Positions 10,515 to 31,271 of a stretch of 64,000 nucleotides of DNA are shown here, in pieces. Each line of letters begins with the position of its first letter. The stretch's first letter is position 1. The position numbers were made by a program, and so were the translations under genes. The notes beneath the pieces are model-generated. The model was not told the DNA's origin and ran no database searches. It saw only the letters and a program-made list of their open reading frames with translations. Source of the DNA: a virus; IMG/VR virus record IMGVR_UViG_3300032173_000004, positions 11,816 through 75,815 of that record; one strand, given 5' to 3'.

Positions 10515-10552
10515 GTGAAACCCCGGGGAGGACTTGCCTCCCCGGGGATCAC
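10515..10552 (-). terminator. GC-rich hairpin with CAAGU loop in the tail-tube leader (terminator or attenuator)
   Basis: Minus strand CCCCGGGGAGG-CAAGT-CCTCCCCGGGG-TTTC. 11-bp perfect stem, short U tract. Confidence 0.6.
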
Positions 10553-10594
10553 ACTGTTTCCTGTGGCCTGGCGGACAACAGGATCTTGACAACC

Positions 10595-10624
10595 AGCCTA
10601 TCTCAGGTGGTAGACCCGCGTCAA
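10595..10624 (-). promoter_or_regulatory. sigma70-like promoter TTGACG-N18-TAGGCT
   Basis: Intergenic. Same spacing as the copies at 31242-31271 and 46842-46871. Confidence 0.55.
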
Positions 10625-10662
10625 GAAATCGGGATCTTAGAAAAGCTGAACGATCTCAGCTG

Positions 10663-11346
10663 CTAGGAGGGCTTGGTGTAGAGGGCGATCGTGTCCCGGA
10701 CCAGCTGCAGCGCAGAAGCGATGAGAGCCCCGCCACCGTGGCCGCCAGCAGATCCGCCCGCGAAGGGGCTGCCGACCGTGAAAGGGACCGTGGCTGCACT
10801 CAACCAGGCCGGCACGGCACCTCCCAGCTGTCCGATGAGTCTCACCAGGGCTGAGATCATCGTGGGGCCGAAGCCATAAGGATTGCTGGCAGAGTCGCCG
10901 AGCCCCTTGCCACCACTCATCGAATCGATCTCCGCGTCGACGGCAGCGTACTCGACGCTGAAGGTGTCGTTGTCGCCTGGAGCCGACGGCAGAACCTTGT
11001 TCAGGTTCAGCGTGTTGGTCGTGTTGCTCACCACGAACGCTGTGACACCAGCCAGGGCTGGGGTCACATCGCCGAGGAACGTCACCTTGGCGCCGACGAG
11101 GCTATTGACCCTGGTGAAGGCACCTGCCGTCTTCACCGCCGTGGTCGAACTACCGATGGCTACCGCCAGCAGTCCCGTGGTGTCGATGAGTGCCGTCAGG
11201 CACCTCAACAGGTCTCCCACCCGATTGCCCCGAACGAATAGATCTGTGGCTGCCGCGGTGTGAGTGGTCGCATCCGTGTGAGGCAGGACAGAAGCCTTGA
11301 GGTTTGCCAGCTGGGTGTCCAGGATGGCCGGAATCGAGATCGACAT
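10663..11346 (-). CDS. Putative virion protein with a beta-rich domain like the sheath inserts
   Basis: 227 aa between sheath and tube. VGAKVTFLG...VVSNTTNTLNL...PSAPGDNDTFSV. Confidence 0.6.
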   Translation of the reverse strand: MSISIPAILDTQLANLKASVLPHTDATTHTAAATDLFVRGNRVGDLLRCLTALIDTTGLLAVAIGSSTTAVKTAGAFTRVNSLVGAKVTFLGDVTPALAGVTAFVVSNTTNTLNLNKVLPSAPGDNDTFSVEYAAVDAEIDSMSGGKGLGDSASNPYGFGPTMISALVRLIGQLGGAVPAWLSAATVPFTVGSPFAGGSAGGHGGGALIASALQLVRDTIALYTKPS

Positions 11347-11373
11347 GACTCAGTCTCCTTTCTTTCTTGTCTT

Positions 11374-13980
11374 CTACGCAGCCTGCCTGGGCAGCTGGAG
11401 GTAGATATCGTTGAGCTGGAAGTTGATCCCCACCGCGGGGTAGATCATGACCTTGATGGTGGCGATGTCGCCACTGATCGTCACCCGGAGCTGCTCATAG
11501 CCCGGCACCGTCTCGCCGTTGTCGTTGAGCGAGGTGACGACAATGTTGTCGGCGTTGCATGCATCCAGGTACGCCACCGCGGTGTCTTTGATCGAAGCCG
11601 CGTTGGCTGGGCTGCCCTTGACACCGGTGAACCGGTCTTCAAGGGTCGTGCGAAGCCCGTAGGCCACGTACCGAACCACATCGCGAGTCGAACCTTCCAT
11701 GTAGGCCAGGTTGTCATCCTTCAGGTACGTCGTGAGGTCGCGGACCCACCTGATGCCCTTGCCTTGGACGAACTCCGCGAACAGAACTCCACCTGCGATC
11801 ATCTGATTCGCGTCCGTCCGGTCACGAGGATCCCAGGACGTGTCCTGAGTGATCGCAAAGGCCTTGAGGTACTTGTGGGTGAGGGGCTCGCCAACCTCAG
11901 GAGCACCAGACCTCATACCGGCAGCCTCAACTGCTTGCGCCCACGCATCCTGGGTCACCAGATTGCTGTCAACATCGAGAACATCGATCCTCTGTCCACA
12001 GAGTTGAATGTCTTCGTTGTTGATAGCTTGCACCTGAGACAGAATCTGGGTTTTCGTTCCCTTGTAGCCGATGATGCCACCACACTCATTCTTGGCAACA
12101 CCTCGAGCCATCGAAACGTGAGCCGACAGCTGAGCTGCTACTGCAGACCAAGTGGCATCCGAAGTAAGGCCTTCGTTGGCCAGATCTTCAACGATGAGAG
12201 GCACCACGAAGTTGTGGCGCACCTGCAGCATCATGTCGAACGCCGTCTGCCAGTCACTGTTGTGACTGTGACCGCGAGAACCGCCGGACAGGTACCTGTA
12301 TGTGTCTCCGACGACACCTACTGATCCACCCGTCCACTCTGGCCGACCACCACCGGTTCCGGTTCCTCCCGTCGTAGCCTTCGCCGCCGTGATCCACTGA
12401 TTCTTGACGTTGATGTCGTCAACCAGCTGCGACAGGTTCCGCTTGAAGTTGTTCGGCCACGGAACAGTGTAGGCCAGCGTCGGAGTCGGCTGAGTTGTCA
12501 CCGTGGCCAGATCGTTCCTCAGGTCTGATCCGGTGGCACCGAGATCGAAGTCGAACGACGAGGCCAGCGTCGTCTGCTTGTTGACATAGCTCGGGATCGT
12601 GGCCTTGTAGTTGGTGTTGGCGTTGATCGTCGCTGCCAGCTGCTCGACCGTGTCCAGCGGACTGATGGTGATGTTCAGCTCCTGAGTCGGAGAGACCGCC
12701 CCGTTGACCGCTGTCATCGTGCGAAAGGCTGTTGCCTTTCCAAGGGACCCGACAAACGATCCAGTGGCCTGGGTGACATAGTGAATCTCGTAGACATCAC
12801 CGACGCCAGGAAGCGTGGTCCACGGGCAGTCCAACGTGAGAACTGGAGCCGTACCAGCCGTGTTGCTGGTGATCGAGCGACGCTGACCGGCTCCCACGCC
12901 AGTCGTAATCGCCACGACCATGCCTGCCAGCTCGTTGGCAGCCACATTGATGGCATCGACACCCGTACCGGGCAGAGTCAACGATGATCCAGAGCCAGCG
13001 GCAAGCAGGGCCCCGGTCAAGATCTGACCCTTCCTGATCTCGTACGTGGCTCCGATGCCAGGAGCCAGCTGGAAGGCGTTGGTAACGCTGACCGTGGTCG
13101 CTCCATTGGCGCTGATCTTGCGAAAGTTCGGAGTGGTCAGAGCACCACCCGTCGCCTTGACGAAGAATCCGATCCACGCGCTCGGAGTCCACGCTTTGGT
13201 GGAGTCAGCGATCTGTGTCGTAGAGCCAGCTCCGTCGGCTGTTCCTCCGTCCAAGAGCACACGAGTCGACTGACCAATGTACTCTACTTGGAGGAATGAC
13301 TTGTCACCGAGGTCATCGCTAACCTGGGACAGATCTCCGAACGAAGTGGACCAGGCGCCGCCGCTGGTCACGCCAGGCTCCCACTCCTGTTTGATCTGAT
13401 TGGTGTGAGCACCGTAGTCCTTGCTCGTGAAGACGATCATCGGGGCAAGAACATACAACGTGGCCGAGGTAGCCGGAATCGCCGAGAACGGAGTTGCCAG
13501 CGTGATGGCTGTCGCCGTGTTGGTCAGGATCACTCGATCCTCTGAGCCACTCCGAAGGATGTTGTTCTTCAGCTCGTCCACGGTGAACGACTCGGCAGGA
13601 ACCTGGATAACCGATGTGGTGGATCCAGGCCCCACAACCACGCTGTCGATGCGGTTGTAGAGAGTCAACGCAGCCTGTGTGCTGTTGTTGACCTTGAGGC
13701 AAAGGCAGCGGAACGCGCCACCAGGGATACGTGGATCGTTCGACGCGTCGAACGCCACCCTGATGGCATCAGCCAGCTTGCCGTTGCGGAAGGCACCCTT
13801 GGCCAAGGCCGGATCGTCGATGGTGACGATCGTGAGAGGCGGTCCGCCCTCGGCCTCGCCAATCAGACCGACGATGCCATTGGTGGCGAGACCGATCTGG
13901 GCAAGAGCGCTGGAGTTGATCCTCGTGAGACCACCCGGTCGAAACTGGGTGATCCCGTTGAACGTTACTGAGCGTGCCAT
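11374..13980 (-). CDS. Tail sheath protein with inserted repeated beta domains
   Basis: N-terminus FNGITQFRPGG...GLIGEAEGGPP; C-terminus GIRWVRDLTT...LEDRFTG...VMIYPAVGINF, typical of SPO1/Twort-like sheaths. Confidence 0.9.
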   Translation of the reverse strand: MARSVTFNGITQFRPGGLTRINSSALAQIGLATNGIVGLIGEAEGGPPLTIVTIDDPALAKGAFRNGKLADAIRVAFDASNDPRIPGGAFRCLCLKVNNSTQAALTLYNRIDSVVVGPGSTTSVIQVPAESFTVDELKNNILRSGSEDRVILTNTATAITLATPFSAIPATSATLYVLAPMIVFTSKDYGAHTNQIKQEWEPGVTSGGAWSTSFGDLSQVSDDLGDKSFLQVEYIGQSTRVLLDGGTADGAGSTTQIADSTKAWTPSAWIGFFVKATGGALTTPNFRKISANGATTVSVTNAFQLAPGIGATYEIRKGQILTGALLAAGSGSSLTLPGTGVDAINVAANELAGMVVAITTGVGAGQRRSITSNTAGTAPVLTLDCPWTTLPGVGDVYEIHYVTQATGSFVGSLGKATAFRTMTAVNGAVSPTQELNITISPLDTVEQLAATINANTNYKATIPSYVNKQTTLASSFDFDLGATGSDLRNDLATVTTQPTPTLAYTVPWPNNFKRNLSQLVDDINVKNQWITAAKATTGGTGTGGGRPEWTGGSVGVVGDTYRYLSGGSRGHSHNSDWQTAFDMMLQVRHNFVVPLIVEDLANEGLTSDATWSAVAAQLSAHVSMARGVAKNECGGIIGYKGTKTQILSQVQAINNEDIQLCGQRIDVLDVDSNLVTQDAWAQAVEAAGMRSGAPEVGEPLTHKYLKAFAITQDTSWDPRDRTDANQMIAGGVLFAEFVQGKGIRWVRDLTTYLKDDNLAYMEGSTRDVVRYVAYGLRTTLEDRFTGVKGSPANAASIKDTAVAYLDACNADNIVVTSLNDNGETVPGYEQLRVTISGDIATIKVMIYPAVGINFQLNDIYLQLPRQAA

Positions 13981-13998
13981 GGTTTGCTCCTACCCTGG

Positions 13999-14259
13999 TT
14001 AGTAGTTCTTGAAGAGCTTGTCCCACTCTTCGACTGTTCGCCGCCCCGTGGTGTCCGCGAACGCCTCCATGCCACCTCTCCAGTGGGGCTTGAATCCCTT
14101 CGACTGGAACCACCTGGCAAACGACACCAAGGGGGCCAGCTCCTTCTTCGGAGAGGCGACCTTTGGCTCCTCTGCGGGGGTTGAGGCTTCCTTCAGCTCG
14201 GGCTGCGGAGCAGAAGGAGCCGGGTTCTCCTTTACGTCCTCACGCGTTGTCTTCGCCAT
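13999..14259 (-). CDS. Hypothetical protein upstream of the sheath
   Basis: 86-aa ORF with SD and a P/E/K-rich N-terminus. Confidence 0.6.
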   Translation of the reverse strand: MAKTTREDVKENPAPSAPQPELKEASTPAEEPKVASPKKELAPLVSFARWFQSKGFKPHWRGGMEAFADTTGRRTVEEWDKLFKNY

Positions 14260-14271
14260 TGGCCGGTCCTC

Positions 14272-15330
14272 CTACGGAGCAAGGTTCAAAGTCGTTTCAG
14301 AGACAGTTCGGCTCACTCCCGAGCTATCCCCAACATTCGGATCACGAACACTGAGAGCGACGGCGATCCTCTTGATCGTCTCGACCGTGAGATAGACATC
14401 AAAGCCGTACTGGAACTCGAGGATCAGAGCACGCAGATATGACGGATCAGGAAGGTACTCTGGTTTCTGAACAAAATCCGTCCCGCTAACCTTCGGCTCG
14501 ATGATTCCTCGTTGCTGCATCCACTCGCAGAAGATAAAGAAGATCGCCTTGACCATAGCATACAAGCAGATCGTGATCTCTGGATTCGGACCGGCGATCG
14601 AAAGCTGGTACGACGTTCGGTACAAGGCTCCCTTTCGCTCCACGACAGCTCCAGTGCCGAAGAGCTTAGAAGGCTCACCCGTGATGTGCCCGGCGTCCTG
14701 GAACTGGAAATCGAACACAGACGTCGCATCTGGGATCGTCATCCAGTTCGAAGTGACCTCCACCGTGATGGCTTTGGAGGCAGCATTCCTGGACATGGTA
14801 TTGACCACGCGTCGTTGACCAGCACCCTGGCCCTCCCTAATCACCACCAACACTTCTGGCACCTCAAACGGATCGGAGATGTTGAAGATTTCATCTGTGG
14901 TCTCGAAGATGAGTGTGGAGATCGTTGCCGCGGTGACACGGTACGGACCAGCCAAAGTGAACGTCTCGTTGGCCAGGTTAGACAAGGAGCCACTGCCAAC
15001 TTCATTCGCTGGATCACCAGCCTCGTCTTCGAAGTCGAATGGCGTTCCTGTGTCCTCTACGTTCCTTGGGCCCTGCATCACGTCCCCCAAGAACGCTTGG
15101 CTCTCAGCCTCGCTCTTGAGGGCTATGATGATCGCCGGCAGCTGCGGCGGGGTGGCAGGCCAATTGATCGCAATGTCGATTGAGCTGTTGACGATGAAAT
15201 CCCGCAACCCCATGACATCTTCTTGGGTGAGATTTCGAAACAGCATGTCGATCAGATCAGGATTCTCTCGGAAGGTGCGAATGCCCTTCACCAGAACTTC
15301 CTGAATGACCATCTCTGGCATGAGGCTCAT
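14272..15330 (-). CDS. Putative tail terminator/neck protein
   Basis: PAIIIALKSEAESQAFLGD...YLRALILEFQY. Position just upstream of the sheath. Confidence 0.6.
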   Translation of the reverse strand: MSLMPEMVIQEVLVKGIRTFRENPDLIDMLFRNLTQEDVMGLRDFIVNSSIDIAINWPATPPQLPAIIIALKSEAESQAFLGDVMQGPRNVEDTGTPFDFEDEAGDPANEVGSGSLSNLANETFTLAGPYRVTAATISTLIFETTDEIFNISDPFEVPEVLVVIREGQGAGQRRVVNTMSRNAASKAITVEVTSNWMTIPDATSVFDFQFQDAGHITGEPSKLFGTGAVVERKGALYRTSYQLSIAGPNPEITICLYAMVKAIFFIFCEWMQQRGIIEPKVSGTDFVQKPEYLPDPSYLRALILEFQYGFDVYLTVETIKRIAVALSVRDPNVGDSSGVSRTVSETTLNLAP

Positions 15331-15929
15331 ACGAGCACCCGTGCAATCAACGGCACGAAGACCGTCGCAATCTGCTTCCTGATGTACTCGATCACTGCCG
15401 GTCTCAGCGGCCCAGGACCGCCCGTACCGATGGGCTTGAAACCTGGATGAACCCAGCCACTGGACTTCGGCAGCATCCGTCGGTAGCTATTCGGATCACC
15501 CTGCTCCTTGTTCTTGGTGCGAAACGGGATGTCCACGAATGGTGGATTCGGCTTCTTTCCGCCAGGATTCGTCTTATGCAGCTGGGACCAATGATCTCCG
15601 GCGTGGCCCTCGAGGCGCGGTGGCTTCAGGTCGAATGCCGACACACCCTGTTCCAGCTTGGAGACAAGCCAGTTCGTTGACTTGTCTCGAGCGAACAGAG
15701 TGATGCACGAATGCGAGGCATCGTCGATGGAGTAGTGCAGAGCGTCTTGGTAGCGACGTCGTGTTGACTTCAGCTTGCGCCCAGCTTCGTTCTGCCATTC
15801 CTCATAGGCCGCCTGCGTGATCTGACGAAGACCTTTCTCGCAAGCTTCCTCGAGGCGCTGGGGCAGCTTCTCCATCTTGTTGATGAGTCGATCCGCCAAC
15901 ACCTTGACTTTGATAACCAACGTGATCAT
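15327..15929 (-). CDS. Putative tail completion/neck protein
   Basis: Start reassigned to ATG 15929, which overlaps the upstream stop (TGATG). LEQGVSAFDLKP...PFR...YRRM...SGWVHPGF motifs of SPO1-like neck proteins. Confidence 0.6.
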   Translation of the reverse strand: MITLVIKVKVLADRLINKMEKLPQRLEEACEKGLRQITQAAYEEWQNEAGRKLKSTRRRYQDALHYSIDDASHSCITLFARDKSTNWLVSKLEQGVSAFDLKPPRLEGHAGDHWSQLHKTNPGGKKPNPPFVDIPFRTKNKEQGDPNSYRRMLPKSSGWVHPGFKPIGTGGPGPLRPAVIEYIRKQIATVFVPLIARVLV

Positions 15930-16726
15930 CAGCATCCCCCCAGTCGCGTGCAGAAAGCCACGCGGTCCAGTGCCCGAATCGACGGGTCCTTCGTGGGAAG
16001 AACGATGTGCCTCTTGCGCAAAGGGCACCTCATGCCAAGGTCACGACCTCGATCCTGTCTCGTGTTCGGAGGATTGAAAACGATCCACTCCAGGTACGCC
16101 ATGTACTTCAGGGTGTAGGGCTTGAACATCTGCGGTCGGTTTCCCTTCCAGCGGACCACTCTGCTTCCATCAAGCTCAAAGTCCGCTCCACCTTCGTAGA
16201 CCTTGCCATCAAGATCTTCGCACCATACCGACTCTGCGGCGTTGTACCAAAGAAGATCCTCATCGTCGTCAACACCGATGTTCTTCCTGGTACCGTTCTC
16301 GTCCTGAGATCCAGCTCCTCGAACGATGACTTGTCCCTCATCCACGGCCTGAGGCCAGGTGTAGGTGATCCGATCTCCAGTGCAAACCTGGTAGCCCGGA
16401 GCGATGGACATGATGGCGTCGCCTGGAACCATCCAGCCCATCTCATCGCGATTACGGGTCTCGGAGATCCCTGTGAGGATGGCCACGACCTTGCGAGGAT
16501 CTCGGAAGAGGAATCCGATGCCGTTGCACAGCTCGCAGCGGAAGGTCGTTCTCTTCCGCAGAACGTGAGGACGCTCCAGAAGCCCAGCCGGCATGTCATC
16601 AGCGCCACACGGGCAGCGGATCGCCGTCTCGTGGATCACGATCTCGCCCCGGTTGTTCACCTGGCCGGTGTGGAGCTTGAGGTTCCAATCGATCCCCAGC
16701 CCTCGGTATGGTCCTCTCGTCGTCAT
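15929..16726 (-). CDS. Putative head closure/neck protein with Cys motifs
   Basis: RGEIVIHETAIRCPC...CELCNGIGFLF, as in Herelleviridae neck proteins. Confidence 0.7.
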   Translation of the reverse strand: MTTRGPYRGLGIDWNLKLHTGQVNNRGEIVIHETAIRCPCGADDMPAGLLERPHVLRKRTTFRCELCNGIGFLFRDPRKVVAILTGISETRNRDEMGWMVPGDAIMSIAPGYQVCTGDRITYTWPQAVDEGQVIVRGAGSQDENGTRKNIGVDDDEDLLWYNAAESVWCEDLDGKVYEGGADFELDGSRVVRWKGNRPQMFKPYTLKYMAYLEWIVFNPPNTRQDRGRDLGMRCPLRKRHIVLPTKDPSIRALDRVAFCTRLGGC

Positions 16727-16773
16727 GATCCTCGCTATAGTAACCGAAACAAAGAGAATTCGGCCACTTATAT

Positions 16774-18186
16774 CTACAGAACCACCACTCCCAGCCCCTT
16801 GTACCTGCCCTTGACCCCTTTGATCTCCCGGTTGATGAACTTGTTGTAATCCTCGATAGTTGCAGCGTAGATCCCGTAGACGGCGCTGGCAGTGTAGGAC
16901 ACGCTCTCCGACACCCCGTCTCGGGATAGGGACTGGGAGGAGAACCCGCCGCGGTAGGCGTGCCCAGCGACCGTCAGAGCGTCGATGGCGGCCTTCTTGC
17001 CCAAGATCTCCAGAAGAACAGGATCCACTTGCCTCAAACCAGCCCGCCCGTTGAAGTGCCAGAAGTTCGGCAGCTCGATCTGACCACGGATGCTCTCGAC
17101 CCAGACAAGGCCGATGAACTGGAAAGCGATCTGCTGATTGAAAGGCACCAGCTGCGAGTACCCACTACGCTCAGCAATCTCTAGCCATTCCAGGGCTGTA
17201 TCGATGATCCTGGTATTGGCGATCTGGCCAAACAGGTTGTCGAGCCTCAGCAGGCCAGGGTAAGGGAACATGATGTCGATCCAACGAGCTGGGGTCGACG
17301 GGAAGAACGTGATTGGCGGAACAAGGAAGTCCCAGTCCACTACCGGGCCACCTGGAACCGGAACCAAATCCGTGGTGATCCGAGTAGGCTCTAGAAACAC
17401 GCCCGCGAGCTTGTCGTTCTCCAACCAGTCGCACGACTGGTTGATCCAGCGACGTAGCATGTCGTCAGTGATTTCGGCTGCCGTGACGAACAGCTCCTCA
17501 GCTTTGTTGGCAGTGGGAAGAGCAGTCACGTTTCGAACCTGGATGACGATGTAGTCGCTGCCCTGGCAATCTCTCTTGAGAAGATAACGACCAGGGGAGT
17601 TGATCACGATCAGAGGACCAGCTCCCCATGAGATCTGTCTCGAGACGGTTGCTGTTCCGTGGTAGACGTAGGTGAGCTTCTCGAACCCCGTGGCATGGGA
17701 CGTGCTGACCTGGACCACCTCAACGCCGGTGATCTCCGACGGCTGAAACTTCACAGCCCGCACATCGTTGGCTTCCAGAGGCAGACCGAAGATGTACGTG
17801 TCCCGGAGCTGCTGAGCCGTCAGGATCGAAATAAGGAAGTCAGCTGTCACACCCGCCACCGAGGGATTGGACTTCACGAACGCTTTGACGAAGTAGTACC
17901 CCCTACGGATGAGGTTGATCTGATACTGGTCAACTACATCTTCGTAAAGGTTGATCGACACAACTCCTACTTGTGGATCGGTAGTGCCAGAGATCGTGAC
18001 GTCCTTCGAGTACACTGCGACGCTTCGATCTCTACGCGCCTTGACAAGCTGCACCGTCAAGACAGTCCCTGACATGTTGCCGCCGCCAGACGCAGTCCAT
18101 TGGACATTGATCACCTGACGAGGACGCTCGAACTTGCTGTACTCGTCGAGATCAACAGTGACTTGGACAGTGGTTGGTGCCGCCAT
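16774..18186 (-). CDS. Head-tail adaptor with N-terminal extension
   Basis: C-terminus GGFSSQSLSRDGVSESVSYTASAVYGIYAATIEDYNK resembles SPO1/Twort adaptors. Confidence 0.7.
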   Translation of the reverse strand: MAAPTTVQVTVDLDEYSKFERPRQVINVQWTASGGGNMSGTVLTVQLVKARRDRSVAVYSKDVTISGTTDPQVGVVSINLYEDVVDQYQINLIRRGYYFVKAFVKSNPSVAGVTADFLISILTAQQLRDTYIFGLPLEANDVRAVKFQPSEITGVEVVQVSTSHATGFEKLTYVYHGTATVSRQISWGAGPLIVINSPGRYLLKRDCQGSDYIVIQVRNVTALPTANKAEELFVTAAEITDDMLRRWINQSCDWLENDKLAGVFLEPTRITTDLVPVPGGPVVDWDFLVPPITFFPSTPARWIDIMFPYPGLLRLDNLFGQIANTRIIDTALEWLEIAERSGYSQLVPFNQQIAFQFIGLVWVESIRGQIELPNFWHFNGRAGLRQVDPVLLEILGKKAAIDALTVAGHAYRGGFSSQSLSRDGVSESVSYTASAVYGIYAATIEDYNKFINREIKGVKGRYKGLGVVVL

Positions 18187-18195
18187 GTCTGTCCC

Positions 18196-18831
18196 CTATG
18201 GGATGTCGAACAGATTGTCCGACGCGTTAGCCGGCACAGTCAGAGTGCGCCGATAGTTGATCACCGGGATAACGATGTCCACGATTGAGCCCTGCAGAAT
18301 CTCGAGGGCGAAGAAGCCTCCTTGATCTGTTTTGGCGCTGATGATTCCAGAACAGATGCCACCACGGTTCGGAGTGATCCCCATGATAGCCGGCGCTGAC
18401 AGTACTCTGGCGCTGATCGACTCTCCGATGAGAGCCTGCCCCTTGAGGTCGACCAGGTTTCCTGTGATGACATTGGTCGCCAGGCTGATCGTTCCTGGAG
18501 TGTAGGTGCTCGACGACTCCACGAATGCCTGGCCCACCGACTGACGGATGGCCGGAGACGGCAGAGCCCCGTTCCCGTTAACGACATAGAGGAACGTGCC
18601 CAGAACAGCCAGCTCTGGAGCGGAGAACAGAATCTCGTAGAAGCCGTTGCCGTTCTCTCGGAAGTCAGCCCCCGAGAGCAGCTTCAGAGTGAAGGTTGGA
18701 TCAGTGGACTTCTTGAAGCTGACATCCACTTGGTTGTAGAGAATGCCCACTCGCGGATCACCAGTGCCGACGTCCGCAGCGAGGAAAGGCAGCCAGGTTG
18801 GTGTTCCTTGAAGAATCTCGATGTAGGACAT
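18196..18831 (-). CDS. Putative virion structural protein (beta-rich)
   Basis: 211 aa with Ig-like pattern, inside the structural operon. Confidence 0.55.
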   Translation of the reverse strand: MSYIEILQGTPTWLPFLAADVGTGDPRVGILYNQVDVSFKKSTDPTFTLKLLSGADFRENGNGFYEILFSAPELAVLGTFLYVVNGNGALPSPAIRQSVGQAFVESSSTYTPGTISLATNVITGNLVDLKGQALIGESISARVLSAPAIMGITPNRGGICSGIISAKTDQGGFFALEILQGSIVDIVIPVINYRRTLTVPANASDNLFDIP

Positions 18832-18841
18832 CGTCTGTCTC

Positions 18842-19261: not shown

Positions 19262-19273
19262 GACGACCTCGCG

Positions 19274-20390: not shown

Positions 20391-20394
20391 ATTC

Positions 20395-20640: not shown

Positions 20641-20655
20641 GGTTCCCTCTCTTCG

Positions 20656-22826: not shown

Positions 22827-22828
22827 TG

Positions 22829-23509: not shown

Positions 23510-23532
23510 CGCAATTTTCTCCTATACAAGCC

Positions 23533-23886
23533 TTACTTGCACTCCTCTATGAACCTTTCCCACTCTGGCTTCTCTTGTGACTCTGTTTCAGCAATACCTC
23601 CTGTGAAACCCAACATGATCATTTTTCTTCTCAGCTGAGAAAAGCTGAGAACCTCAGGTTCGTCTGGCACGGATTGAGAAACGTTAGCCTTCTTCCGTGC
23701 CGCTACGATCTGATTAACGATCGTAATGCAATCTTGACAGTAGTCTCCCCACGATGACTTGGGCAATGTGTTTCCACTGACCTTGTACATCCGACAACCC
23801 GATGGAACATCGTGACCACTCTTGCACCACAGCACAGAGGGGTTCAGGATTTCATCGATCGTCAGATCTGCCTTCAATGTAAACAT
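23533..23886 (-). CDS. Hypothetical Zn-finger-like protein
   Basis: CKSGH...YCQDC. Confidence 0.55.
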   Translation of the reverse strand: MFTLKADLTIDEILNPSVLWCKSGHDVPSGCRMYKVSGNTLPKSSWGDYCQDCITIVNQIVAARKKANVSQSVPDEPEVLSFSQLRRKMIMLGFTGGIAETESQEKPEWERFIEECK

Positions 23887-23896
23887 GTTGATCCTT

Positions 23897-23944
23897 AAAA
23901 CCTAGATAGGGAACGCAGGTGTTATTCCACGTTCCCTATCTAGG
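23897..23944 (-). terminator. Intrinsic terminator
   Basis: 15-bp perfect inverted repeat CCTAGATAGGGAACG/CGTTCCCTATCTAGG followed by TTTT on the minus strand. Confidence 0.75.
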
Positions 23945-23956
23945 GTCAATCAGTTG

Positions 23957-25927
23957 CTACCCAACCACGAAGTAGTTGATGTGATCACCTGCATTGATCT
24001 TGGTGTACGGAGTGATGTGCGTGGTGTCCGTCTCCTCGTAGTCATCTCCGTTGGCAACAGTGCCAGGATCACGCAACAGGCCGCGCCAGAACACCCACAA
24101 ACGACGACCATTGCCAGTGCCATCGAGGACGTAGGTCACACCACCGGCGATATGATTGGTGAACTTCGGAACACCTGGTCCACCTGAGGCCAAACGCTCG
24201 ATGGTACGCACCGATCCTGCCGCTCCGATGGCATCAGAGAGACGCTGTAGCGACTGAGTGATCGTCTCGCCATCATGCGGAGCCAGTACACCAGTTCCAC
24301 TGTAGGTACGGTTGCCGATCTGATCGTTGATCGCCTGCACGATCTCTTCGAGACTGGACATCGCCGGACTCGGCAGGTTGTTGAAGATGTAATAGGCACC
24401 CGTGTTGGTGAGAACTGGGTGCTGCTCTCCTGGAGCGGCACCCGTGAAGAGCTGAAGATTGTGGATCGCCGTAGCCAGAGCTGCATCACTCGTGATGCCT
24501 CCAACCATGGTGGTACGGAAAGCGGTGTCGTCGAGCTGGTCAAGACGATACCGATCTCCATTGTAAAAGTCCCACAAATTGCCTTCCTGGGAGACCGCCC
24601 ACTTGATGGACCCGCTGTTGGCATCAGCAGAGAAGTTCCCTGTCCTCGTGACAGTGACCTGCGTAGCAGAATCCACCGTCTCGATCTGGTAGATCCCGCA
24701 GTCGCCAGCAGTGCCGCAGTTGTACAACGTGATGAATCGGCCCACGTCTTCGGCAACCATGCCAGTGAGGCCACCGATCTGCTTGTTTCCGCCAGCAAGA
24801 GTAGCAACTGACCCGTTGCGGCCAGCAAGCATCTGAAGAACTGCATTGGTGGCGGTACCGTCGTTGAGCCCCGTCAGAAGCTGCACGAAGAACCGAACGC
24901 CTTCATTGTCAGCAGTGCGCTTGGGGTCCTTGATGTTGCCGAAGCTTCGACCGAAAAGAGCCAGATCAGCGTTCGTGAGAGGATGGAACCCTGTGACCGT
25001 GCTGATCATCTCCACGAAAGTGGCATCGTAGTGAGTGTTGTCGAATGCTCCAGCATCCGCGATGGGGATACCTGTCGTGTCCGTGGCGTCCGCGTAATTA
25101 CGGGCACTGAGAACACCCTTGAGACCGGCGACGAGGGCCCAGTTGCAGGCCTCAGCCGTGGCCGAATTGAGGCCATCCAACTCAACCGAGTTGTTGGCAT
25201 TGACAGTCTTGATCCGATAGGTTCCATCTGCATCCGTGGAACCAGATATCGTGATGAAGCTGTTGAGATCCAACGCCGTGAAGTGCATCTTGGTGGTGGT
25301 GAAGGTCTCATCACCGATCAGAAGAGCACCGTCAACATCATTGATCGGAGGACGAAGCTGGATGTTGTGCTGCAGCTCATCCCTCACGATGGGCTTGGCA
25401 TCCGTGGTCTTGCCAGCGATGTTGGTGAGGTTGGCTGGAACTGGGGTTCCCGTGGCATCCGGCCTGGTGTAGGTCGGAACGGCGGTGTAGTGCTGAGCAG
25501 TACCTTTGATGTTCTTGCGGTCGGTTCGAGCGAAGTTGATGTCGTCCGCGATGGTGTACGCATCGTTCGTCTTGAACGTGGCTGCACACGGAGCCACTTC
25601 GATCCCACCACCAGTGATGGCAAGAAAGGTGAGACTCGTGGCAGTTCGAGAAACGATCAACGAAGTACCGTTGTTGCCAGCCACCGAGTTCTCGATCGTG
25701 ATGAACCGACCGATCTCAGCGTCAGTGAATGCCGCCCCCGTATCCGTCAGCGTCTGCAGACCGAGAGCTGGAGCCGAGATGTCCTCATTCGCTGCTGCCG
25801 TCGGTCCGGTCGTCCCCTGCGCTCCCAGAAGACCAGCCTCGTCTACCGGGAGGTTCTTGCTGTTGTTGACCGGTACTGTTCCCATCATGTCGATGGATGG
25901 ATCCAACACATTTCTTCTCGTACTCAT
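23957..25927 (-). CDS. Putative capsid decoration/fibre protein with three repeated beta domains
   Basis: 656 aa, T/G/A-rich. Repeats IGRFITIEN, LNSFITISG and VGRFITLYN. Confidence 0.6.
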   Translation of the reverse strand: MSTRRNVLDPSIDMMGTVPVNNSKNLPVDEAGLLGAQGTTGPTAAANEDISAPALGLQTLTDTGAAFTDAEIGRFITIENSVAGNNGTSLIVSRTATSLTFLAITGGGIEVAPCAATFKTNDAYTIADDINFARTDRKNIKGTAQHYTAVPTYTRPDATGTPVPANLTNIAGKTTDAKPIVRDELQHNIQLRPPINDVDGALLIGDETFTTTKMHFTALDLNSFITISGSTDADGTYRIKTVNANNSVELDGLNSATAEACNWALVAGLKGVLSARNYADATDTTGIPIADAGAFDNTHYDATFVEMISTVTGFHPLTNADLALFGRSFGNIKDPKRTADNEGVRFFVQLLTGLNDGTATNAVLQMLAGRNGSVATLAGGNKQIGGLTGMVAEDVGRFITLYNCGTAGDCGIYQIETVDSATQVTVTRTGNFSADANSGSIKWAVSQEGNLWDFYNGDRYRLDQLDDTAFRTTMVGGITSDAALATAIHNLQLFTGAAPGEQHPVLTNTGAYYIFNNLPSPAMSSLEEIVQAINDQIGNRTYSGTGVLAPHDGETITQSLQRLSDAIGAAGSVRTIERLASGGPGVPKFTNHIAGGVTYVLDGTGNGRRLWVFWRGLLRDPGTVANGDDYEETDTTHITPYTKINAGDHINYFVVG

Positions 25928-25945
25928 CTGCTCCTCCTGATCCGG

Positions 25946-26245
25946 TTAAATCGCGGTGTAATCAGCGACAAGCTGTGTCCTTGAACTCGGTGCCCACGAT
26001 GTCAACTTCACACGATCATAGTTACCAGATCCGGGCACACTCTCTAGAACCTGGTATTCGTAATCGTTCAGCTTCCGTCCGCCGTGGTATACTCTCACCA
26101 CCGAGTATGGAAGATCAACAAACGCAGGCTCCGGCAGGATGAACAATCTGTTCAATCCATCACAAACACCCGACAATGGAATGTTCCACCGAAACCGACC
26201 CAATAGGATCGCGGCAGCTTTAGATCCTATGGGTTGAAGGATCAT
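25946..26245 (-). CDS. Small beta-rich putative virion protein
   Basis: SGVCDGLNRLF...VRVYHGGRKL...DY, related to the C-terminus of the downstream 656-aa protein. Confidence 0.55.
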   Translation of the reverse strand: MILQPIGSKAAAILLGRFRWNIPLSGVCDGLNRLFILPEPAFVDLPYSVVRVYHGGRKLNDYEYQVLESVPGSGNYDRVKLTSWAPSSRTQLVADYTAI

Positions 26246-26257
26246 TCGTTCTCCTTC

Positions 26258-26581
26258 CTACGCGATGATCCCCATCACCGAATACTTCGCGACTGCACCA
26301 GAAGTCCCTCTCACCCGACAGCGATGAATCACCACTGGAAACGGAATCGTGGTGAGCGGAGCAATGGCAAACCACCTGCCGTCGACACCGTCAGCAAAGC
26401 TCACCTCGAGGGTATTGCCAGCAGAACCCTCCATGTTGGTGACGATGACAGCAGCTGTGGATTGACGGTTTCGATTTGGCCCCATGTCGAACGAAATCTC
26501 TATGCCTTCCGGTGTTGACGCTGCATCCGGCGCACTCCCGATTCCATTCGTGGGGTGGATAGGCCTACCAGGCTTGAACAT
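26258..26581 (-). CDS. Hypothetical virion protein
   Basis: 107 aa with SD (GGAG). Confidence 0.55.
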   Translation of the reverse strand: MFKPGRPIHPTNGIGSAPDAASTPEGIEISFDMGPNRNRQSTAAVIVTNMEGSAGNTLEVSFADGVDGRWFAIAPLTTIPFPVVIHRCRVRGTSGAVAKYSVMGIIA

Positions 26582-26711
26582 GATGTGCTCCGTTTGTCAA
26601 AGCCCCAAAGGTGGGAGGGGCACATAGAGGGAATTCACATGCCGGCGCATGGCGCCGGATCATCGTCTGCGCATCACCATCTTGCGCAGATATGACAGCC
26701 GGAAGTGCATC

Positions 26712-26960
26712 CTACGTGTGCAGCGCCGGAGCCGGGTTCAGCCTGATGTTGGGCTTCGCCTGCAGCTTGTAGACGAGCGTCTGCATGGAAGCTTCCGCCG
26801 TCACGGCCAGGGCATTGACCGCCCCGATGTTGGCAGCCGTCTTGAGGTCTGTGATCAGCGTGCCCAGCATGTCGAGCAGCTGGTTGTAGCTGTGGATCAA
26901 CTGAGCCGTCTCCTGAGACGGGGTGTCGCCGACTACCTTCTGAGTCATCAGGTTCGCCAT
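26712..26960 (-). CDS. Hypothetical virion protein
   Basis: 82 aa, SD AGGAG, codon bias similar to the capsid gene. Confidence 0.6.
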   Translation of the reverse strand: MANLMTQKVVGDTPSQETAQLIHSYNQLLDMLGTLITDLKTAANIGAVNALAVTAEASMQTLVYKLQAKPNIRLNPAPALHT

Positions 26961-26969
26961 TGTCTTCTC

Positions 26970-27596
26970 CTAGCGTTTGCCCTTCGGCGGCATCCGACGT
27001 CGAGGGGTTGCCTTATCTGCGTCGTTTTCTACCTCAGCATCCACTGAAGCAGCGTCTTGATGCTCTTGCTCGTCGATCTCCTGTGCCAGCTCCTGTTCGG
27101 CAATCAGAGCTGCATCTTCTTTTGCCTCTGCGCGGGCCTCTGCACGAGCTTCCTTGGCCTCTGCACGAGCTTCCTTGGCCTCTGCGCGGGCCTCTGCACG
27201 AGCTTCCTTGGCCTCTTCTTTTGTCATCTTGACATCAAGATCCGGCGCAATTGCCACCGGAAGATCCTCAGCAGTCTTTTGAGGATCGACGATCTTTGCC
27301 AAACCTCGAGCACTGCGGATGTAGGTCTCGCAGTCGTATCTGGCATTCCCCGCGTCACGAATCTTCGCGATCCCCTGTCCGTCAAACGCGATGACTGTGG
27401 ATCCTACTACCACGTTTCGATTCTTCATCCAGCGGTGTTCAATGAGGATCATCGGCATGGCCTCCCACGGATTCACACGATCCTCCATCGAAGCTTGAGC
27501 CAGTTTGATCGCCAATTCGGGGTACATCTTCCCGACGGCTCTTTGGTGCTTCAGGAGATCCGCGATCGTCAGGTTGTCTTCGATCGTACCAGGCAT
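26970..27596 (-). CDS. Hypothetical protein with EAKEARA/EARA repeats
   Basis: Immediately downstream of the MCP terminator. Confidence 0.6.
   Translation of the reverse strand: MPGTIEDNLTIADLLKHQRAVGKMYPELAIKLAQASMEDRVNPWEAMPMILIEHRWMKNRNVVVGSTVIAFDGQGIAKIRDAGNARYDCETYIRSARGLAKIVDPQKTAEDLPVAIAPDLDVKMTKEEAKEARAEARAEAKEARAEAKEARAEARAEAKEDAALIAEQELAQEIDEQEHQDAASVDAEVENDADKATPRRRMPPKGKR
27124..27216. repeat. Compound tandem repeat (12-bp and 21-bp units in the order 12-21-21-12-21)
   Basis: Perfect copies of GCCTCTGCGCGG and GCCTCTGCACGAGCTTCCTTG. Confidence 0.9.
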
Positions 27597-27620
27597 CGCA
27601 AACCTGCGCAGCTTTTCTAG

Positions 27621-27663
27621 AAATACCCTTGGGCGAGGGGCCTAAACCCTTGTCGCCCAAGGG
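27621..27663 (-). terminator. Terminator downstream of the major capsid gene
   Basis: CCCTTGGGCGA...TCGCCCAAGGG stem followed by TATTT on the minus strand. Confidence 0.65.
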
Positions 27664-27702
27664 GATCCACCACCATCCTACTTCAACCCAGCCGTACCCC
27701 TA

Positions 27703-29145
27703 CTAGGATACCAGCTGGCCGATGTTCACCATCCGCAGCCACTTCTTCGGCGCGAACAGGATCGGCGTGCCGTACAGGAGGATCTGCCACCTGTAGGCCG
27801 GAGCCAGAACCGCGAGGTCCAGGCGCATCATCGGAGCCAGCTGCCGGAACGTGAGCACCTGCGGAGTCAGCTCGCCCATGTAGGCGATGCTGGTGAACGG
27901 CAGGAGGAAGTTCACGTCGTTGCCTGTGGTCGTGCCACTGCCGGCCTGAGACGCTGCCGGGATCTGCATGATCAGGCTGTAGGAAGCGCCCGTCGAGGGA
28001 ACTCCCGCGCTGGATGCACGAGCCTTGGTGCGGTACACGCGGAAGAACTCTGGAGGGAAAGCGCCGATGGCAGCTGCGTTGGTGATCGTCAGCGGCAGGT
28101 GCTGGCCCGAATCCTTGTTGCCCTGAGTCAGGCTGCCCGCTGCGGACACCATGACCGGTGCGCTCTCGCCGAAGCGATTGCATGCGGTCACGGCATAGCA
28201 GTACTCGTTGGTCCCGGCGAAGGCGCCCTTGTTGAAGTCGCCATCCGTGCCGGCGCCAGCGCCCGCTGCGATCGAGGTGGGGGTGGCGGGAGCGTTGGGG
28301 TGCGTCGCCGCCGCAGGCGGGATCGGGAGCGGACGAATGAACACGTCCGGGTTGAACTCGATGTGACCCGCCTGCGTCGCCATCGAGTTGATCGCCTGGC
28401 CGATGACGCCGTTGACCGGCGCCGGCAGGCTGACCCGCTCACGCGGGTACATCGTCTTGGTGAGGTCGCTGAGGGCCCGCGGGTTGAGGAACAGATCCGT
28501 CGGGTAGGCGTAGTTCTCGACGAGGATGTTGCTGGCCTCTTCGATGTCCGCCTCGGTCAGACTGTTGCCCTGCAGATCCACGAACGCCGTCGGATCGATC
28601 AGCGCGTCGAGACCATCCCACTGCTCTGCCTCGCCGTCGTAGGCGAGAGCGCTGTCAGCCGTGAAGAGTGCCGTCTCGACACGCTCCAGCAGCCACAGGA
28701 TGCCGTTCTGGTTCTCGAGCGCGATGATGTCACCGTGCGCGGGGTGGACCAGCGTGGCCGGGTGGGTCACTTCCCGGGTCGTGCCCAGGAACTTGACCAG
28801 CTGCGTACGGCGGACGTAGCTCGAGTCAGTGCTGGGAGGCAGCTCGCCTTCCATCGTGAACGCGAAGCTCCCGGGGCCGTACGACGTCAGCTGGTTGTAC
28901 TCCTCGACGGTGGAGTACGCCGGGCTCTTGGGGATCTTCTTCCAGAACTTGATGTGGTGGTTGGTGTAGGTGACCACCTTGAGACTGGCCTCGAGCGACT
29001 CCACGCGGAGTGCGCTACCACCGGTCTGGTTGGTGATCTGGTAGCCGGCCTCGAGGGCCTTGCTCAGCTCACGGATGTCCTGCGCGGGGGCCAGGCCGAA
29101 ACCGTTGAGCCCCTCGTAGTGCGCCAGGGAAACCTGCGGGTACAT
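27703..29145 (-). CDS. Major capsid protein (SPO1/Twort-like)
   Basis: ELSKALEAGY...GGSALRVESLEASLKVVTY...KSPAYSTVEEY...VKFLG...EQWDGL...LYGTPILFAPKKW. Confidence 0.95.
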   Translation of the reverse strand: MYPQVSLAHYEGLNGFGLAPAQDIRELSKALEAGYQITNQTGGSALRVESLEASLKVVTYTNHHIKFWKKIPKSPAYSTVEEYNQLTSYGPGSFAFTMEGELPPSTDSSYVRRTQLVKFLGTTREVTHPATLVHPAHGDIIALENQNGILWLLERVETALFTADSALAYDGEAEQWDGLDALIDPTAFVDLQGNSLTEADIEEASNILVENYAYPTDLFLNPRALSDLTKTMYPRERVSLPAPVNGVIGQAINSMATQAGHIEFNPDVFIRPLPIPPAAATHPNAPATPTSIAAGAGAGTDGDFNKGAFAGTNEYCYAVTACNRFGESAPVMVSAAGSLTQGNKDSGQHLPLTITNAAAIGAFPPEFFRVYRTKARASSAGVPSTGASYSLIMQIPAASQAGSGTTTGNDVNFLLPFTSIAYMGELTPQVLTFRQLAPMMRLDLAVLAPAYRWQILLYGTPILFAPKKWLRMVNIGQLVS

Positions 29146-29175
29146 GTTTGATCCTCCTTGGTTGCTCGAGGGCCG

Positions 29176-30192
29176 TTAGCGGCCATTGCCCTGGATGCGT
29201 GCCTGAATCTGCGTGAGCAGGTCAGGACGGATCTCCCCGGTCGTGTCGAACTTGATCACCTCGAGAGGGTTGATCTGGCTCTTCTCGACCATCTCCTGCA
29301 GCACCGCGATCACCTGACCCTTGGACAGGTTCTCCCCGCCCGCGGGACCGCCGAACGACTTGTTCAGCACGGTGCTCTGCTGGCCACCCGGGAGAGCCCG
29401 AAGCTGGCTCTTGGGGGCGCCAACAGGCAGCTGAGCGACCTGCTCGACCTGCTGCAGGCTGCCCGCGATGCCGTGACCGATGTTCGCCACGGCCTCGGCA
29501 AGCGACTTGTTGAACTCGGCCTGCTCGGACGCGAACTGCTGCAGAGCCGCGAAGAGCTGGTTGCCGATGTCCAGGGAGTAGGCCTGCTGACGCTGCTCGA
29601 CGGCAGCCAGACCCGTGCCGAAGGACTTGGCGAACTCGGCCAGGAACTCGGAGACCTCAATCCCCTTGTGGACCGTATCGTTGCTCGAAAGAACCTCGGA
29701 CATGGACTTGCCGAACGGGAACCCGCCCTTGTCGTCCTTGCCCTTGTCCTTCTTGCCATCCTTCTTGTCGTCCTTGTCGTCGTCATCGTCGTCCGCGTCC
29801 ATGCCCTTCATGGCCGGGGGCTTCATGCCGCCGCCGACACCCATCCCGCCAGCGCCGGTGATCGGACCGGCCTTGTCGAGATCCGACTTGAGGAGCGCCA
29901 GCTCGTCGACGGACAGCGGAAGGCCCTTCTTGACCTTCATCCGAATCGACTTGCGAACACCACGCTCGTTGTAGTCGGTCCCATCGGGCTTGATGTCGTC
30001 GGCGCCGGGGCCGTTGCCCGGGACGTCGGTGACCTTGCCTGCCGGCCAGTCGCGACGCTCGCTGTTCGGGCCGGTGCAGATCTGGGACTTGTTCATCGGT
30101 TCCCCGGTCTGACCACCCTTCGCGAGAGCCTCCAGGCGAGCCAGGCTCTTGTAGAACTCCTCGCTGCGGATCGTGGCCTCCTGCGGTGCCAT
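29176..30192 (-). CDS. Putative scaffold protein
   Basis: Between protease and MCP. ATG 30192 with SD AGGAGG. Acidic tract and many x-K-[S/A/G] sites. Confidence 0.75.
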   Translation of the reverse strand: MAPQEATIRSEEFYKSLARLEALAKGGQTGEPMNKSQICTGPNSERRDWPAGKVTDVPGNGPGADDIKPDGTDYNERGVRKSIRMKVKKGLPLSVDELALLKSDLDKAGPITGAGGMGVGGGMKPPAMKGMDADDDDDDKDDKKDGKKDKGKDDKGGFPFGKSMSEVLSSNDTVHKGIEVSEFLAEFAKSFGTGLAAVEQRQQAYSLDIGNQLFAALQQFASEQAEFNKSLAEAVANIGHGIAGSLQQVEQVAQLPVGAPKSQLRALPGGQQSTVLNKSFGGPAGGENLSKGQVIAVLQEMVEKSQINPLEVIKFDTTGEIRPDLLTQIQARIQGNGR

Positions 30193-30203
30193 CTCTTCGC
30201 CTC

Positions 30204-31163
30204 CTAGTTTGTGAGTCCGTTCATTCGAAAGACAGCCTTGGCCACGATCTGGGCCTGTGGCTGTGTGAGTTTGCGTTCCACCATCAGCCATGCAACGGAC
30301 TCTCCGAAGCTCATGGCCTCCGGCAACGACTTCCGAACATGCTCAGGATCAGAGTGACCGTACCGAAGATCACTCATCCGACCTTCCAGACTTTGAACCG
30401 TGATCGCACGACCTGAAGCTCCAGTAGCTGCGAACGCCTTGGCTGACTCGTTTCGCTTCTGGAGATCCATCTCTTCCTGGGTCAGAGAACGAATTGCCTT
30501 CTTCTGATCCCTTCCACCACCAGAACAGTTGCAGGCTCCACAGCACTTGCCGCCCGAAGACTCTTGGCACGATCCACGCTCTTCGCGGTGAGCTTTGTAG
30601 ACCATGTCTGGAGTAATCGAGATCGACTTGGCATCATCTGCGGCCCACCACTCCACTGGCAGGGCGTTCAACGACTTCACGACTTCGAGCCAGGTGTTGG
30701 TGTTGATCGGAGCTGCCGTGATGGCAATGTCCTGGATCCAGCACTTGATGATGGTCTTGCCAGTGCGGCGAAGAACCTTGCCCTGGATCGAGAAGCCCAC
30801 CTTACGGTTCGATCCTGATGCCTCGAGAGCCAGAATCAGCTCCCAGATCGAATCAGCCTCCTTGTGGTTCTGGAAGAGGAAGCCCTTGACGTAGAGACCC
30901 TTGGCAGTCACTCGACACTCGGTCGGCTGACCTACCTTGTTCTCGAATCCGGGCTTGTGGTCGTTGTTGAAAAAACCGTGCTTGAGGAAGTAAGAAAAGT
31001 CGATCCCGTGCTGCTTTACGATCTCATCCTGGAGATCCATGTCCTCCGTGGACGCGATGCCTTCGATCCATCGCTTCCCGTCCGCGGGCTTCTTGGTCTC
31101 AGGAGTGGATTTCGTGATCGGCAACCAGAAGGAAAAACCACTCTCTTGAAGAAGATCAAGCAT
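30204..31163 (-). CDS. Prohead (capsid maturation) protease
   Basis: IEGIASTEDMDLQDEIVKQHGIDFSYFLKHGFFNNDH...VGFSIQGKV...AITAAPIN. ATG 31163 preferred because the upstream GTG lies inside a terminator hairpin. Confidence 0.9.
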   Translation of the reverse strand: MLDLLQESGFSFWLPITKSTPETKKPADGKRWIEGIASTEDMDLQDEIVKQHGIDFSYFLKHGFFNNDHKPGFENKVGQPTECRVTAKGLYVKGFLFQNHKEADSIWELILALEASGSNRKVGFSIQGKVLRRTGKTIIKCWIQDIAITAAPINTNTWLEVVKSLNALPVEWWAADDAKSISITPDMVYKAHREERGSCQESSGGKCCGACNCSGGGRDQKKAIRSLTQEEMDLQKRNESAKAFAATGASGRAITVQSLEGRMSDLRYGHSDPEHVRKSLPEAMSFGESVAWLMVERKLTQPQAQIVAKAVFRMNGLTN

Positions 31164-31178
31164 CCAGGATCCAGAAAC

Positions 31179-31217
31179 AAAAAAAGGGAGGTCGAGCACT
31201 TGGCTCGGTCTCCCTTT
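31179..31217 (-). terminator. Promoter-proximal terminator/attenuator with CAAGU loop
   Basis: Minus strand AAAGGGAG-ACCGAGC-CAAGT-GCTCGAC-CTCCC-TTTTTTT. Confidence 0.75.
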
Positions 31218-31241
31218 GTTGGAGTCGTCAGGTTTTGGAGA

Positions 31242-31271
31242 ACGCTACAGTGGATCGGATCGTTCTGTCAA
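31242..31271 (-). promoter_or_regulatory. sigma70-like promoter TTGACA-N18-TAGCGT
   Basis: Perfect -35 box, intergenic, upstream of the protease. Confidence 0.6.

Follow-up and report, generated by a model that had tools for sequence, protein, structure and literature searches.

What do two hairpins with an identical CAAGU loop do in front of the capsid and tail-tube genes of one phage? Next to nothing is known about the timing of late genes in large uncultured myoviruses that have SPO1-like capsids, and the question is raised by a 64,000-nucleotide (nt) stretch of DNA, positions 11,816 to 75,815 of IMG/VR virus record IMGVR_UViG_3300032173_000004, which we refer to as the window. The record from which it was taken is a linear, 75.8-kb sequence from a sediment metagenome with a CheckV completeness of 45%, and every statement of absence made below for this phage is valid for this ∼45% fragment only. 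An earlier note on the window had read both hairpins as attenuators opened by a phage RNA-binding antiterminator, or as short RNAs, an interpretation that is partly supported here. We conclude that the two loci are probably separate conserved leaders, with the capsid-side element (element A) a promoter-proximal intrinsic terminator that acts as a conditional attenuator or insulator before the capsid operon, and the tube-side element (element B) a structured 5′ leader.

Every feature that had been described at the two loci is present, on the minus strand: promoter-like strings are followed by a hairpin with a GAGS-CAAGT-SCTC apex.

31274-31266 and 31247-31242, minus strand: promoter-like strings of locus 2 (capsid side), TTCTTGACA and TAGCGT, separated by an 18-nt spacer
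31217-31183, minus strand: hairpin of locus 2, AAAGGGAG-AC-CGAGC, loop CAAGU, GCUCG-AC-CUCCCUUU, with a T7 run at 31185-31179
10627-10619 and 10600-10595, minus strand: promoter-like strings of locus 1 (tube side), TTCTTGACG and TAGGCT, separated by an 18-nt spacer
10547-10521, minus strand: 11-bp hairpin of locus 1, CCCCGGGGAGG, loop CAAGU, CCUCCCCGGGG

Compared with shuffled sequence, the locus 2 hairpin folds at −22.7 kcal/mol (z of −3.4) and the locus 1 hairpin at −31.9 kcal/mol (z of −5.1). The 13-mer GAGSCAAGTSCTC (GAGS-CAAGT-SCTC) occurs twice in the window, against 0.04 copies expected, and at least 2 copies were found in 0 of 100 shuffles; TTCTTGAC alone is unremarkable (5 copies versus 2.45 expected). 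The identity of the apexes within this genome is not a trivial chance event. The striking identical loop nevertheless turns out not to be a conserved feature, and the shared apex appears to be private to this genome and not the conserved core of either element. The motif GAGS-CAAGT-SCTC was found in 0 of 198 fetched loci, and in the one other record that carries both elements (L007/L073) the apexes are unlike each other. Since it is not conserved, we do not presume the CAAGU apex to be a functional core; its identity at the two loci may be a chance result, may come from local copying, or may provide a handle specific to this lineage.

Element A was compared across 20 related IMG/VR loci (capsid protein 65 to 83% and protease 44 to 68% identical), which yielded 17 distinct intergenic regions. 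The gene order of zinc-ribbon gene, intergenic region, and protease gene is held in all 20 loci.

31179-31274, minus strand: element A as a whole, made up of promoter, CUCCA box, hairpin, and U-tract, after which comes the protease ATG
31242-31274, minus strand: promoter-like element of A, starting 5 nt past the zinc-ribbon gene's stop codon
31220-31224, minus strand: CUCCA box (alignments A1 and A5), 4 to 5 nt upstream of AAAGGGAG
31179-31217, minus strand: hairpin and U7 of element A, with an invariant lower stem (AAAGGGAG/CUCCCUUU), a covarying upper stem, and a free loop (CAAGU)

The order of parts can be written as CUCCA-N4-5-AAAGGGAG, covarying upper stem, free loop, CUCCCUUUUU, and protease ATG. 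Across the 17 sequences, TTGAC is followed after 17 to 18 nt by TA(G/C/T), then by 17 to 42 variable nt, and then by CUCCA, which is invariant save for one C-to-U change at its first base. Beyond this box come 4 to 5 mostly-A bases, an invariant GGGAG(A), a lineage-specific upper stem and loop, an invariant CUCCC, a tract of U4 to U7, 1 to 3 nt, a second U run, a GGA-type ribosome site, and the ATG. In a model-based alignment 92% of cells are paired (slid controls, 38 to 66%), and double changes number 15 versus 4.9 in shuffles. This covariation sits in the upper stem, while the lower stem has a compensatory A-U to G-C change in two lineages. Most relatives carry U-G pairs on the sense strand, which argues for an RNA structure on that strand. 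The loop had been proposed to be conserved and proved to be free: relatives have UCAG, UUCG, GCU, AUGA, AUGC, AAAA, AAUA, GAAA, and others in element A, CAAGU is found in the window only, and UUUG, GAUU, and UUUU are also among the loops of relatives.

Element A looks like a strong canonical intrinsic (Rho-independent) terminator placed after its own promoter. Its hairpin is G+C rich with a short loop, and a U4-to-U7 tract directly follows the stem in 17/17 distinct sequences, with folding energies of −18 to −29 kcal/mol (median, −21.6 kcal/mol). From the U-tract to the start codon of the protease gene there are 4 to 51 nt (15 nt in the window), and the predicted promoter-to-terminator RNA is 56 to 76 nt long. 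In addition, CUCC can pair with GGAG of the terminator 5′ arm in all 17 sequences, forming a mini-hairpin of −4.3 to −10 kcal/mol. Each record has a single copy of the element, even one of 115 kb (covariance model R1), and no Rfam family reached its gathering score anywhere in the window. A pattern scan of prokaryote genomes returned 22 hits that scored only 23 to 37 bits with R1, compared with 47 to 75 bits for true members; these hits are generic terminators and provide no clue to the host.

Element B was assembled from close relatives of the tube gene plus a metagenome pattern scan filtered by a covariance model, giving 21 distinct sequences.

10457-10627, minus strand: element B as a whole, a promoter and then a ∼126-nt leader of three hairpins
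10595-10627, minus strand: promoter-like element of B, with its −10 end 12 nt before P1
10567-10582, minus strand: hairpin P1, CCUG, loop UUGUCCGC, CAGG
10505-10561 (core, 10521-10547), minus strand: hairpin P2, the second hairpin of the earlier note, a long and irregular helix of variable sequence and loop
10457-10501, minus strand: hairpin P3-P5, long, with conserved internal loops CUCUGG and CCUUCGG

P1, P2, and P3-P5 are common to all 21 sequences; 97.6% of the cells in modeled pairs are paired (slid controls, 21 to 44%), and double-change cells number 44 versus 13.7 in shuffles. The P1 loop is conserved as UYGUCCRC, and a second CAGG at 10563-10560 could serve as an alternative P1 partner. 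P2, the hairpin with the shared apex, folds in 21/21 sequences at −15 to −44 kcal/mol with a different loop in each. On its 3′ side lies a pyrimidine stretch for which pairing with an upstream CAGGAA is predicted, and no consistent U-tract follows P2: the sequence there is UUUCACC in the window and CUUUCC, CCCUCUCC, or ACUUUC in most relatives, and 3 to 4 U are seen in a few members only. Because the flank is predicted to pair with CAGGAA and few members have a U run, we consider P2 a structural helix and not a terminator. The idea of an attenuator or short RNA is therefore reasonable for the capsid-side hairpin, whose U4-to-U7 tract is kept in all relatives, and wrong for the tube-side hairpin, which has no U-tract in most of them.

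The two hairpins had also been taken for one family. In covariance-model scans, the capsid-side model R1 gave no hit at 10521-10547 at an E value of up to 1 and model R2 gave none at element A; since the models do not cross-match, A and B are not one family. Rfam searches around B at E values of up to 10 returned chance-level hits only (E values of 0.07 to 6). Wherever its flank is available B stands before the tube gene, and it occurs once per record. With the −10 end 7 to 12 nt ahead of P1, the folded RNA would begin essentially at the 5′ end of the transcript. Between B and the strong Shine-Dalgarno sequence and ATG of the tube gene lie 40 to 90 nt that are rich in A or CA and have no modeled or conserved structure. 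B lacks the expression platform of a riboswitch; no terminator follows P5, and the ribosome site is free. We rejected a pseudoknot in which the P1 loop would pair with the linker that follows P2, as it is inconsistent across sequences and clashes with P3, and complements of the P1 loop elsewhere in the record are chance matches only.

The leader of more distant tube relatives (L025 to L044) is a different one, placed ∼35 to 95 nt ahead of the tube gene. It is a long hairpin that shows covariation and has GUCGUCCCCUCC as its conserved apical loop; a U run comes after it. That loop resembles the P1 loop of B and is anti-Shine-Dalgarno-like.

Both elements follow promoter-like strings. The pattern TTGAC[AGT]-N16-18-TAnnnT has only 3 sites in the 75.8-kb record, a chance-level number by our own estimate, so the evidence for promoters rests on the relatives and not on this genome. 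TTGAC-N17/18-TA is found upstream of A at the equivalent position in 17/17 distinct relatives (estimated chance, ∼0.016 per sequence), and TTGAC-N17-19-TAnnnT precedes B in 20/21 distinct sequences. A and B would thus both stand behind one class of sigma-70-like promoter (TTGAC, 17 to 18 nt, TAG/TAC). That a conserved promoter-like element and then a conserved RNA structure precede genes for high-copy virion proteins at both loci, as had been noticed from the window alone, is borne out by the relatives and by PHROGs. In many relatives the spacer carries an operator-like palindrome of the TTCTAGAA type that is common to both late promoters. A GATTCTAGAATC-type palindrome lies between −35 and −10 in the A promoters of L006, L008, L014, and L017 and in the B promoters of L039, L073, L153, L148, and L142; the spacers of the window's own A and B promoters lack the TTCTAGAA palindrome. 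Open reading frames (ORFs) of ∼190 to 200 amino acids matching Sigma70_r2 were found in relatives (G003:C1:82004-82183 and G008:C1:7816-7983), which suggests that the phage group may encode its own sigma factor; no such ORF is present in the ∼45% of this genome covered by the record.

A third promoter-like site, TTGACA-N17-TACCCT, lies at 59243-59272 on the minus strand and has GAACGATC in its spacer in common with the A promoter. What looks like a second promoter-like class, GTTAGAA-N14-AGTACAA/AGTAGAA, has 4 copies before small genes, at 51840-51867 (minus strand), 52126-52153 (plus strand), 53632-53659 (plus strand), and 62386-62413 (minus strand). The first half of this motif recalls CGTTAGA, which we take to be the late −35 box of SPO1.

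From the sequences, conservation, covariation, and positions observed, we infer promoter activity, termination, and regulation at element A as follows. A polymerase coming from the A promoter, or from the upstream operon for portal and ejection proteins, would meet a hairpin of about −20 kcal/mol followed by U5 to U7. From the A promoter this would happen 56 to 76 nt past the predicted start, and transcription would terminate there unless termination were overcome. Because the terminator precedes them, the protease, scaffold, and capsid genes would be expressed by read-through only. CUCCA and AAAGGGAG/CUCCCUUU stay fixed where the upper stem covaries, so a specific partner presumably reads the sequence of A; in all, ∼22 invariant bases would point to such a partner. 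The likeliest one would be a factor that holds the CUCC/GGAG mini-hairpin, an antiterminator-like layout, and thereby blocks the terminator.

Several points weigh against these readings of A and B. Searches identified no phage antiterminator of the kind the earlier note had proposed, in a record that is only ∼45% complete; similarly, a Q homologue (PF06530) was absent from five records that are 45 to 89% complete, with the control matching in Escherichia coli. The mini-hairpin is weak, at about −5 versus −21.6 kcal/mol for the terminator, and its bases are invariant, so that no covariation can support it. For B, the metagenome retrieval pattern forced CCAGG, CTGG, CGRTC, and CCTTCRG, making the invariance partly a matter of construction, whereas the covarying pairs were not forced. 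Promoter activity, 3′ ends, and read-through are predictions from sequence. The 13-nt apex that occurs twice when 0.04 copies are expected stays unexplained, and TTGAC-N18-TAG could be read by the host primary sigma factor or by a phage sigma factor such as the Sigma70_r2 ORF of relatives.

Element A may resemble known regulatory systems in logic, not in parts. RAT/terminator leaders of the BglG/SacY/LicT type have a small hairpin that overlaps the 5′ arm of a strong terminator, as does the short conserved sequence of A that could form the CUCC/GGAG hairpin. In contrast to them, A has a mini-hairpin of 4 to 6 pairs without the RAT consensus, and no CAT-domain protein was found. The lambda PR′-tR′ (6S RNA)-Q system likewise has a sigma-70-type promoter closely before an intrinsic terminator ahead of virion genes, producing a short RNA unless termination is overcome, and the spacers of relatives often carry the TTCTAGAA palindrome where the Q-binding element would sit (Q loading at a lambdoid late promoter is described in bioRxiv 10.1101/2022.03.25.485794). 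Element A differs in that none of the five records has a Q homologue and the window's spacers have no palindrome. Its terminator also stands ahead of a start codon, at a distance of 4 to 51 nt (15 nt in the window), and between two structural operons, not at a single late promoter. We recognized no sigma-dependent pause element at A.

The main rival for A is a plain terminator and 3′-end stabilizer of the upstream portal/ejection-protein operon, with constitutive partial read-through, no dedicated factor, and an incidental promoter placement. The canonical terminator shape would fit this explanation, as would the location at an operon boundary, immediately past the final upstream gene, the antiterminator searches that found none, and the presence of other strong hairpins at late-region gene boundaries (after the capsid gene and at 23901-23944). 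We nonetheless regard it as doubtful. The promoter lies upstream of the terminator in 17/17 sequences and never downstream, an order that would waste the promoter, and the ∼22 invariant bases, including the unpaired CUCCA, exceed the needs of a generic terminator.

The two other hairpins deserve a description of their own. One of −27.5 kcal/mol, at 27625-27665 on the minus strand, directly follows the major capsid gene and is succeeded by UAUUUCU and then TTCTAGAA; leaky termination or 3′ stabilization may be its function. The other, at 23901-23944 on the minus strand, is a perfect 18-bp hairpin with UUUU (−30.5 kcal/mol) that ends 14 nt before the ATG (23886) of a gene for a 117-amino-acid protein, and represents a second terminator-before-gene arrangement.

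Element B is most likely a structured 5′ leader, with a role as stabilizer, as protein-binding site, or as put-like anti-pausing RNA; we do not read it as an attenuator. The conserved structure excludes the ribosome-binding site, so B would act on the transcript or the polymerase and not through that site. Among 5′ mRNA stabilizers are the 5′ hairpins of ompA and the STAB-SD stabilizers of SP82 and cryIIIA. B is like them in that the message of an abundant protein opens at its extreme 5′ end with stable hairpins, after which come an A/CA-rich leader that has no conserved structure and a strong ribosome site, but its conserved P1 loop and internal loops exceed what a plain protective hairpin needs. 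The AAAGGGAG arm of A is also Shine-Dalgarno-like, although there these bases are paired. Neither element shows any likeness to Rfam families.

More specifically, B could be a protein-free processive antitermination or anti-pausing RNA like put of phage HK022, riding the polymerase through the long tail operon. The HK022 put RNA has two stems in ∼70 nt and binds the zinc-binding domain of β′, and putL starts at the third nucleotide (A3) of its transcript (PMC9378689). B similarly would start a few nt from the predicted transcript start, has several stems next to a promoter with no expression platform and the ribosome site left free, and has no obvious need for a protein gene beside it. Unlike put, it has three hairpins in ∼126 nt and an unrelated sequence, and its put-like role would be a prediction from sequence. 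Because the available part of the tail operon has no convincing downstream terminators for such an RNA to overcome, we consider this function unlikely, if worth keeping in view.

An explanation that joins the two elements would make them a dedicated RNA-level layer of late-gene control, which we think improbable. Here A would be a terminator switch, and a partner, perhaps the upstream zinc-ribbon protein or the 30S subunit, would flip it by binding either its Shine-Dalgarno-like AAAGGGAG arm or the mini-hairpin of CUCC-(A-rich)-GGAG. B would act like put, without any protein, to sustain polymerase movement along the tail operon, and the GAGN-CAAGU-N′CUC apex would be a shared handle for a single trans factor in this lineage only.

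Element A could instead be the gene for a short trans-acting RNA (predicted, 56 to 76 nt) that uses its single-stranded, anti-Shine-Dalgarno-like CUCCA as a seed on other messages. A promoter, a terminator whose U tail is long, and a conserved CUCCA left unpaired do resemble the layout of a small RNA. No target was found, and complements of the CUCCA region elsewhere in the record are chance matches only. The terminator abuts the protease start in every relative (4 to 51 nt; 15 nt in the window), which argues for action in cis, and a trans-acting RNA is accordingly quite improbable.

The proposal closest to that of the earlier note, that both hairpins are one kind of attenuator and that a single phage RNA-binding antiterminator reads their common CAAGU loop to coregulate the capsid and tail-tube units, is very improbable. 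It has in its favor the double occurrence of the apex, the same promoter type before both copies, and CAAG in the A loops of relatives L002 and L016. Yet none of the 198 fetched loci has the apex, every relative has a different loop, and A and B carry unlike apexes in the one further record in which both occur. A U-tract does not consistently follow the B hairpin, which R1 also fails to match.

Scarcely plausible is a DNA promoter for a phage sigma factor or polymerase within the 5′ arm of the terminator, CTCCA-N4-5-AAAGGGAGA, which would let late transcripts begin within the hairpin and so avoid being terminated: the invariance of the 5′ arm, and with it that of the complementary 3′ arm, would be accounted for, a small sigma-like ORF is present in relatives, and the string resembles what we take to be the end of T3/T7 promoters (CTCACTAAAGGGAGA), but it has one copy per record, even in 115 kb, and we rejected a T7/T3-like promoter on that ground. 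A search of five records for a single-subunit polymerase (PF00940) gave no match; it had no positive control and hence is not evidence. Translation through the A hairpin, from an in-frame GTG at 31199 after GGGAG, was also rejected, since relatives have no start codon in the loop and their spacing of GGGAG and ATG is not divisible by three.

The analysis yields two alignable RNA elements outside Rfam, with covariance models, of a general kind that is already known. A would guard the capsid operon as a promoter-then-terminator unit, and B is a strongly covarying three-hairpin leader on the predicted tail-tube message. Control of A by a factor would mean that late logic of the lambda kind also exists in an unrelated phage group, and an action of B on polymerase would give put-type RNAs a second example.

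All genes near both hairpins lie on the minus strand. PHROGs assign the protease, scaffold, major head protein, tail sheath, and tail chaperone, plus a 149-amino-acid virion protein at the position of the tube.

31279-31506, minus strand: gene for a 75-amino-acid zinc-ribbon protein, directly upstream of element A, with its stop codon at 31281-31279
30204-31163, minus strand: prohead protease gene (PHROGs), with its ATG at 31163, 15 nt past the U-tract
29176-30291, minus strand: scaffold gene, downstream of the protease gene
27703-29145, minus strand: major capsid protein gene, downstream of the scaffold gene
9957-10417, minus strand: tail-tube gene (149 amino acids) including its Shine-Dalgarno sequence, with a strong AGGAGGA at 10417-10411 and its ATG at 10406

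The protease start is backed by tblastn alignments that open at residue 1 in relatives. The zinc-ribbon gene is syntenic in 20/20 related loci; its product matched no Pfam or PHROG family, the Atlas gives it a generic zinc-ribbon likeness only, and we regard it as a mere candidate for the factor acting on element A. Upstream of element B, a gene for a 227-amino-acid protein that comes after the sheath gene ends at 10663. In tblastn comparisons, SPO1-like (Herelleviridae) capsids share no more than 46% identity with the capsid protein. A blastn search of 27000-33000 against a phage collection gave no match, and no relatives of the capsid protein were found in prokaryote genomes.

The sequencing runs listed as holding this phage are DNA runs from sediment and peat metagenomes. 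Contigs of runs X1 to X3 aligned to 10300-30299 are fragments of a strain that is 98 to 99% identical; the comparison over this span, which has element B within it and element A outside it, lists no difference within B.

Between the portal region and the protease gene, at 31506-36710 on the minus strand, the window encodes a 1,734-amino-acid protein with topoisomerase-IB-like, inorganic pyrophosphatase, and DUF5661 domains. Finally, GATC occurs 841 times per strand in the 75.8-kb record, a ∼2.8-fold excess over the ∼296 expected from length alone, and GGATCC and CGATCG are likewise frequent.

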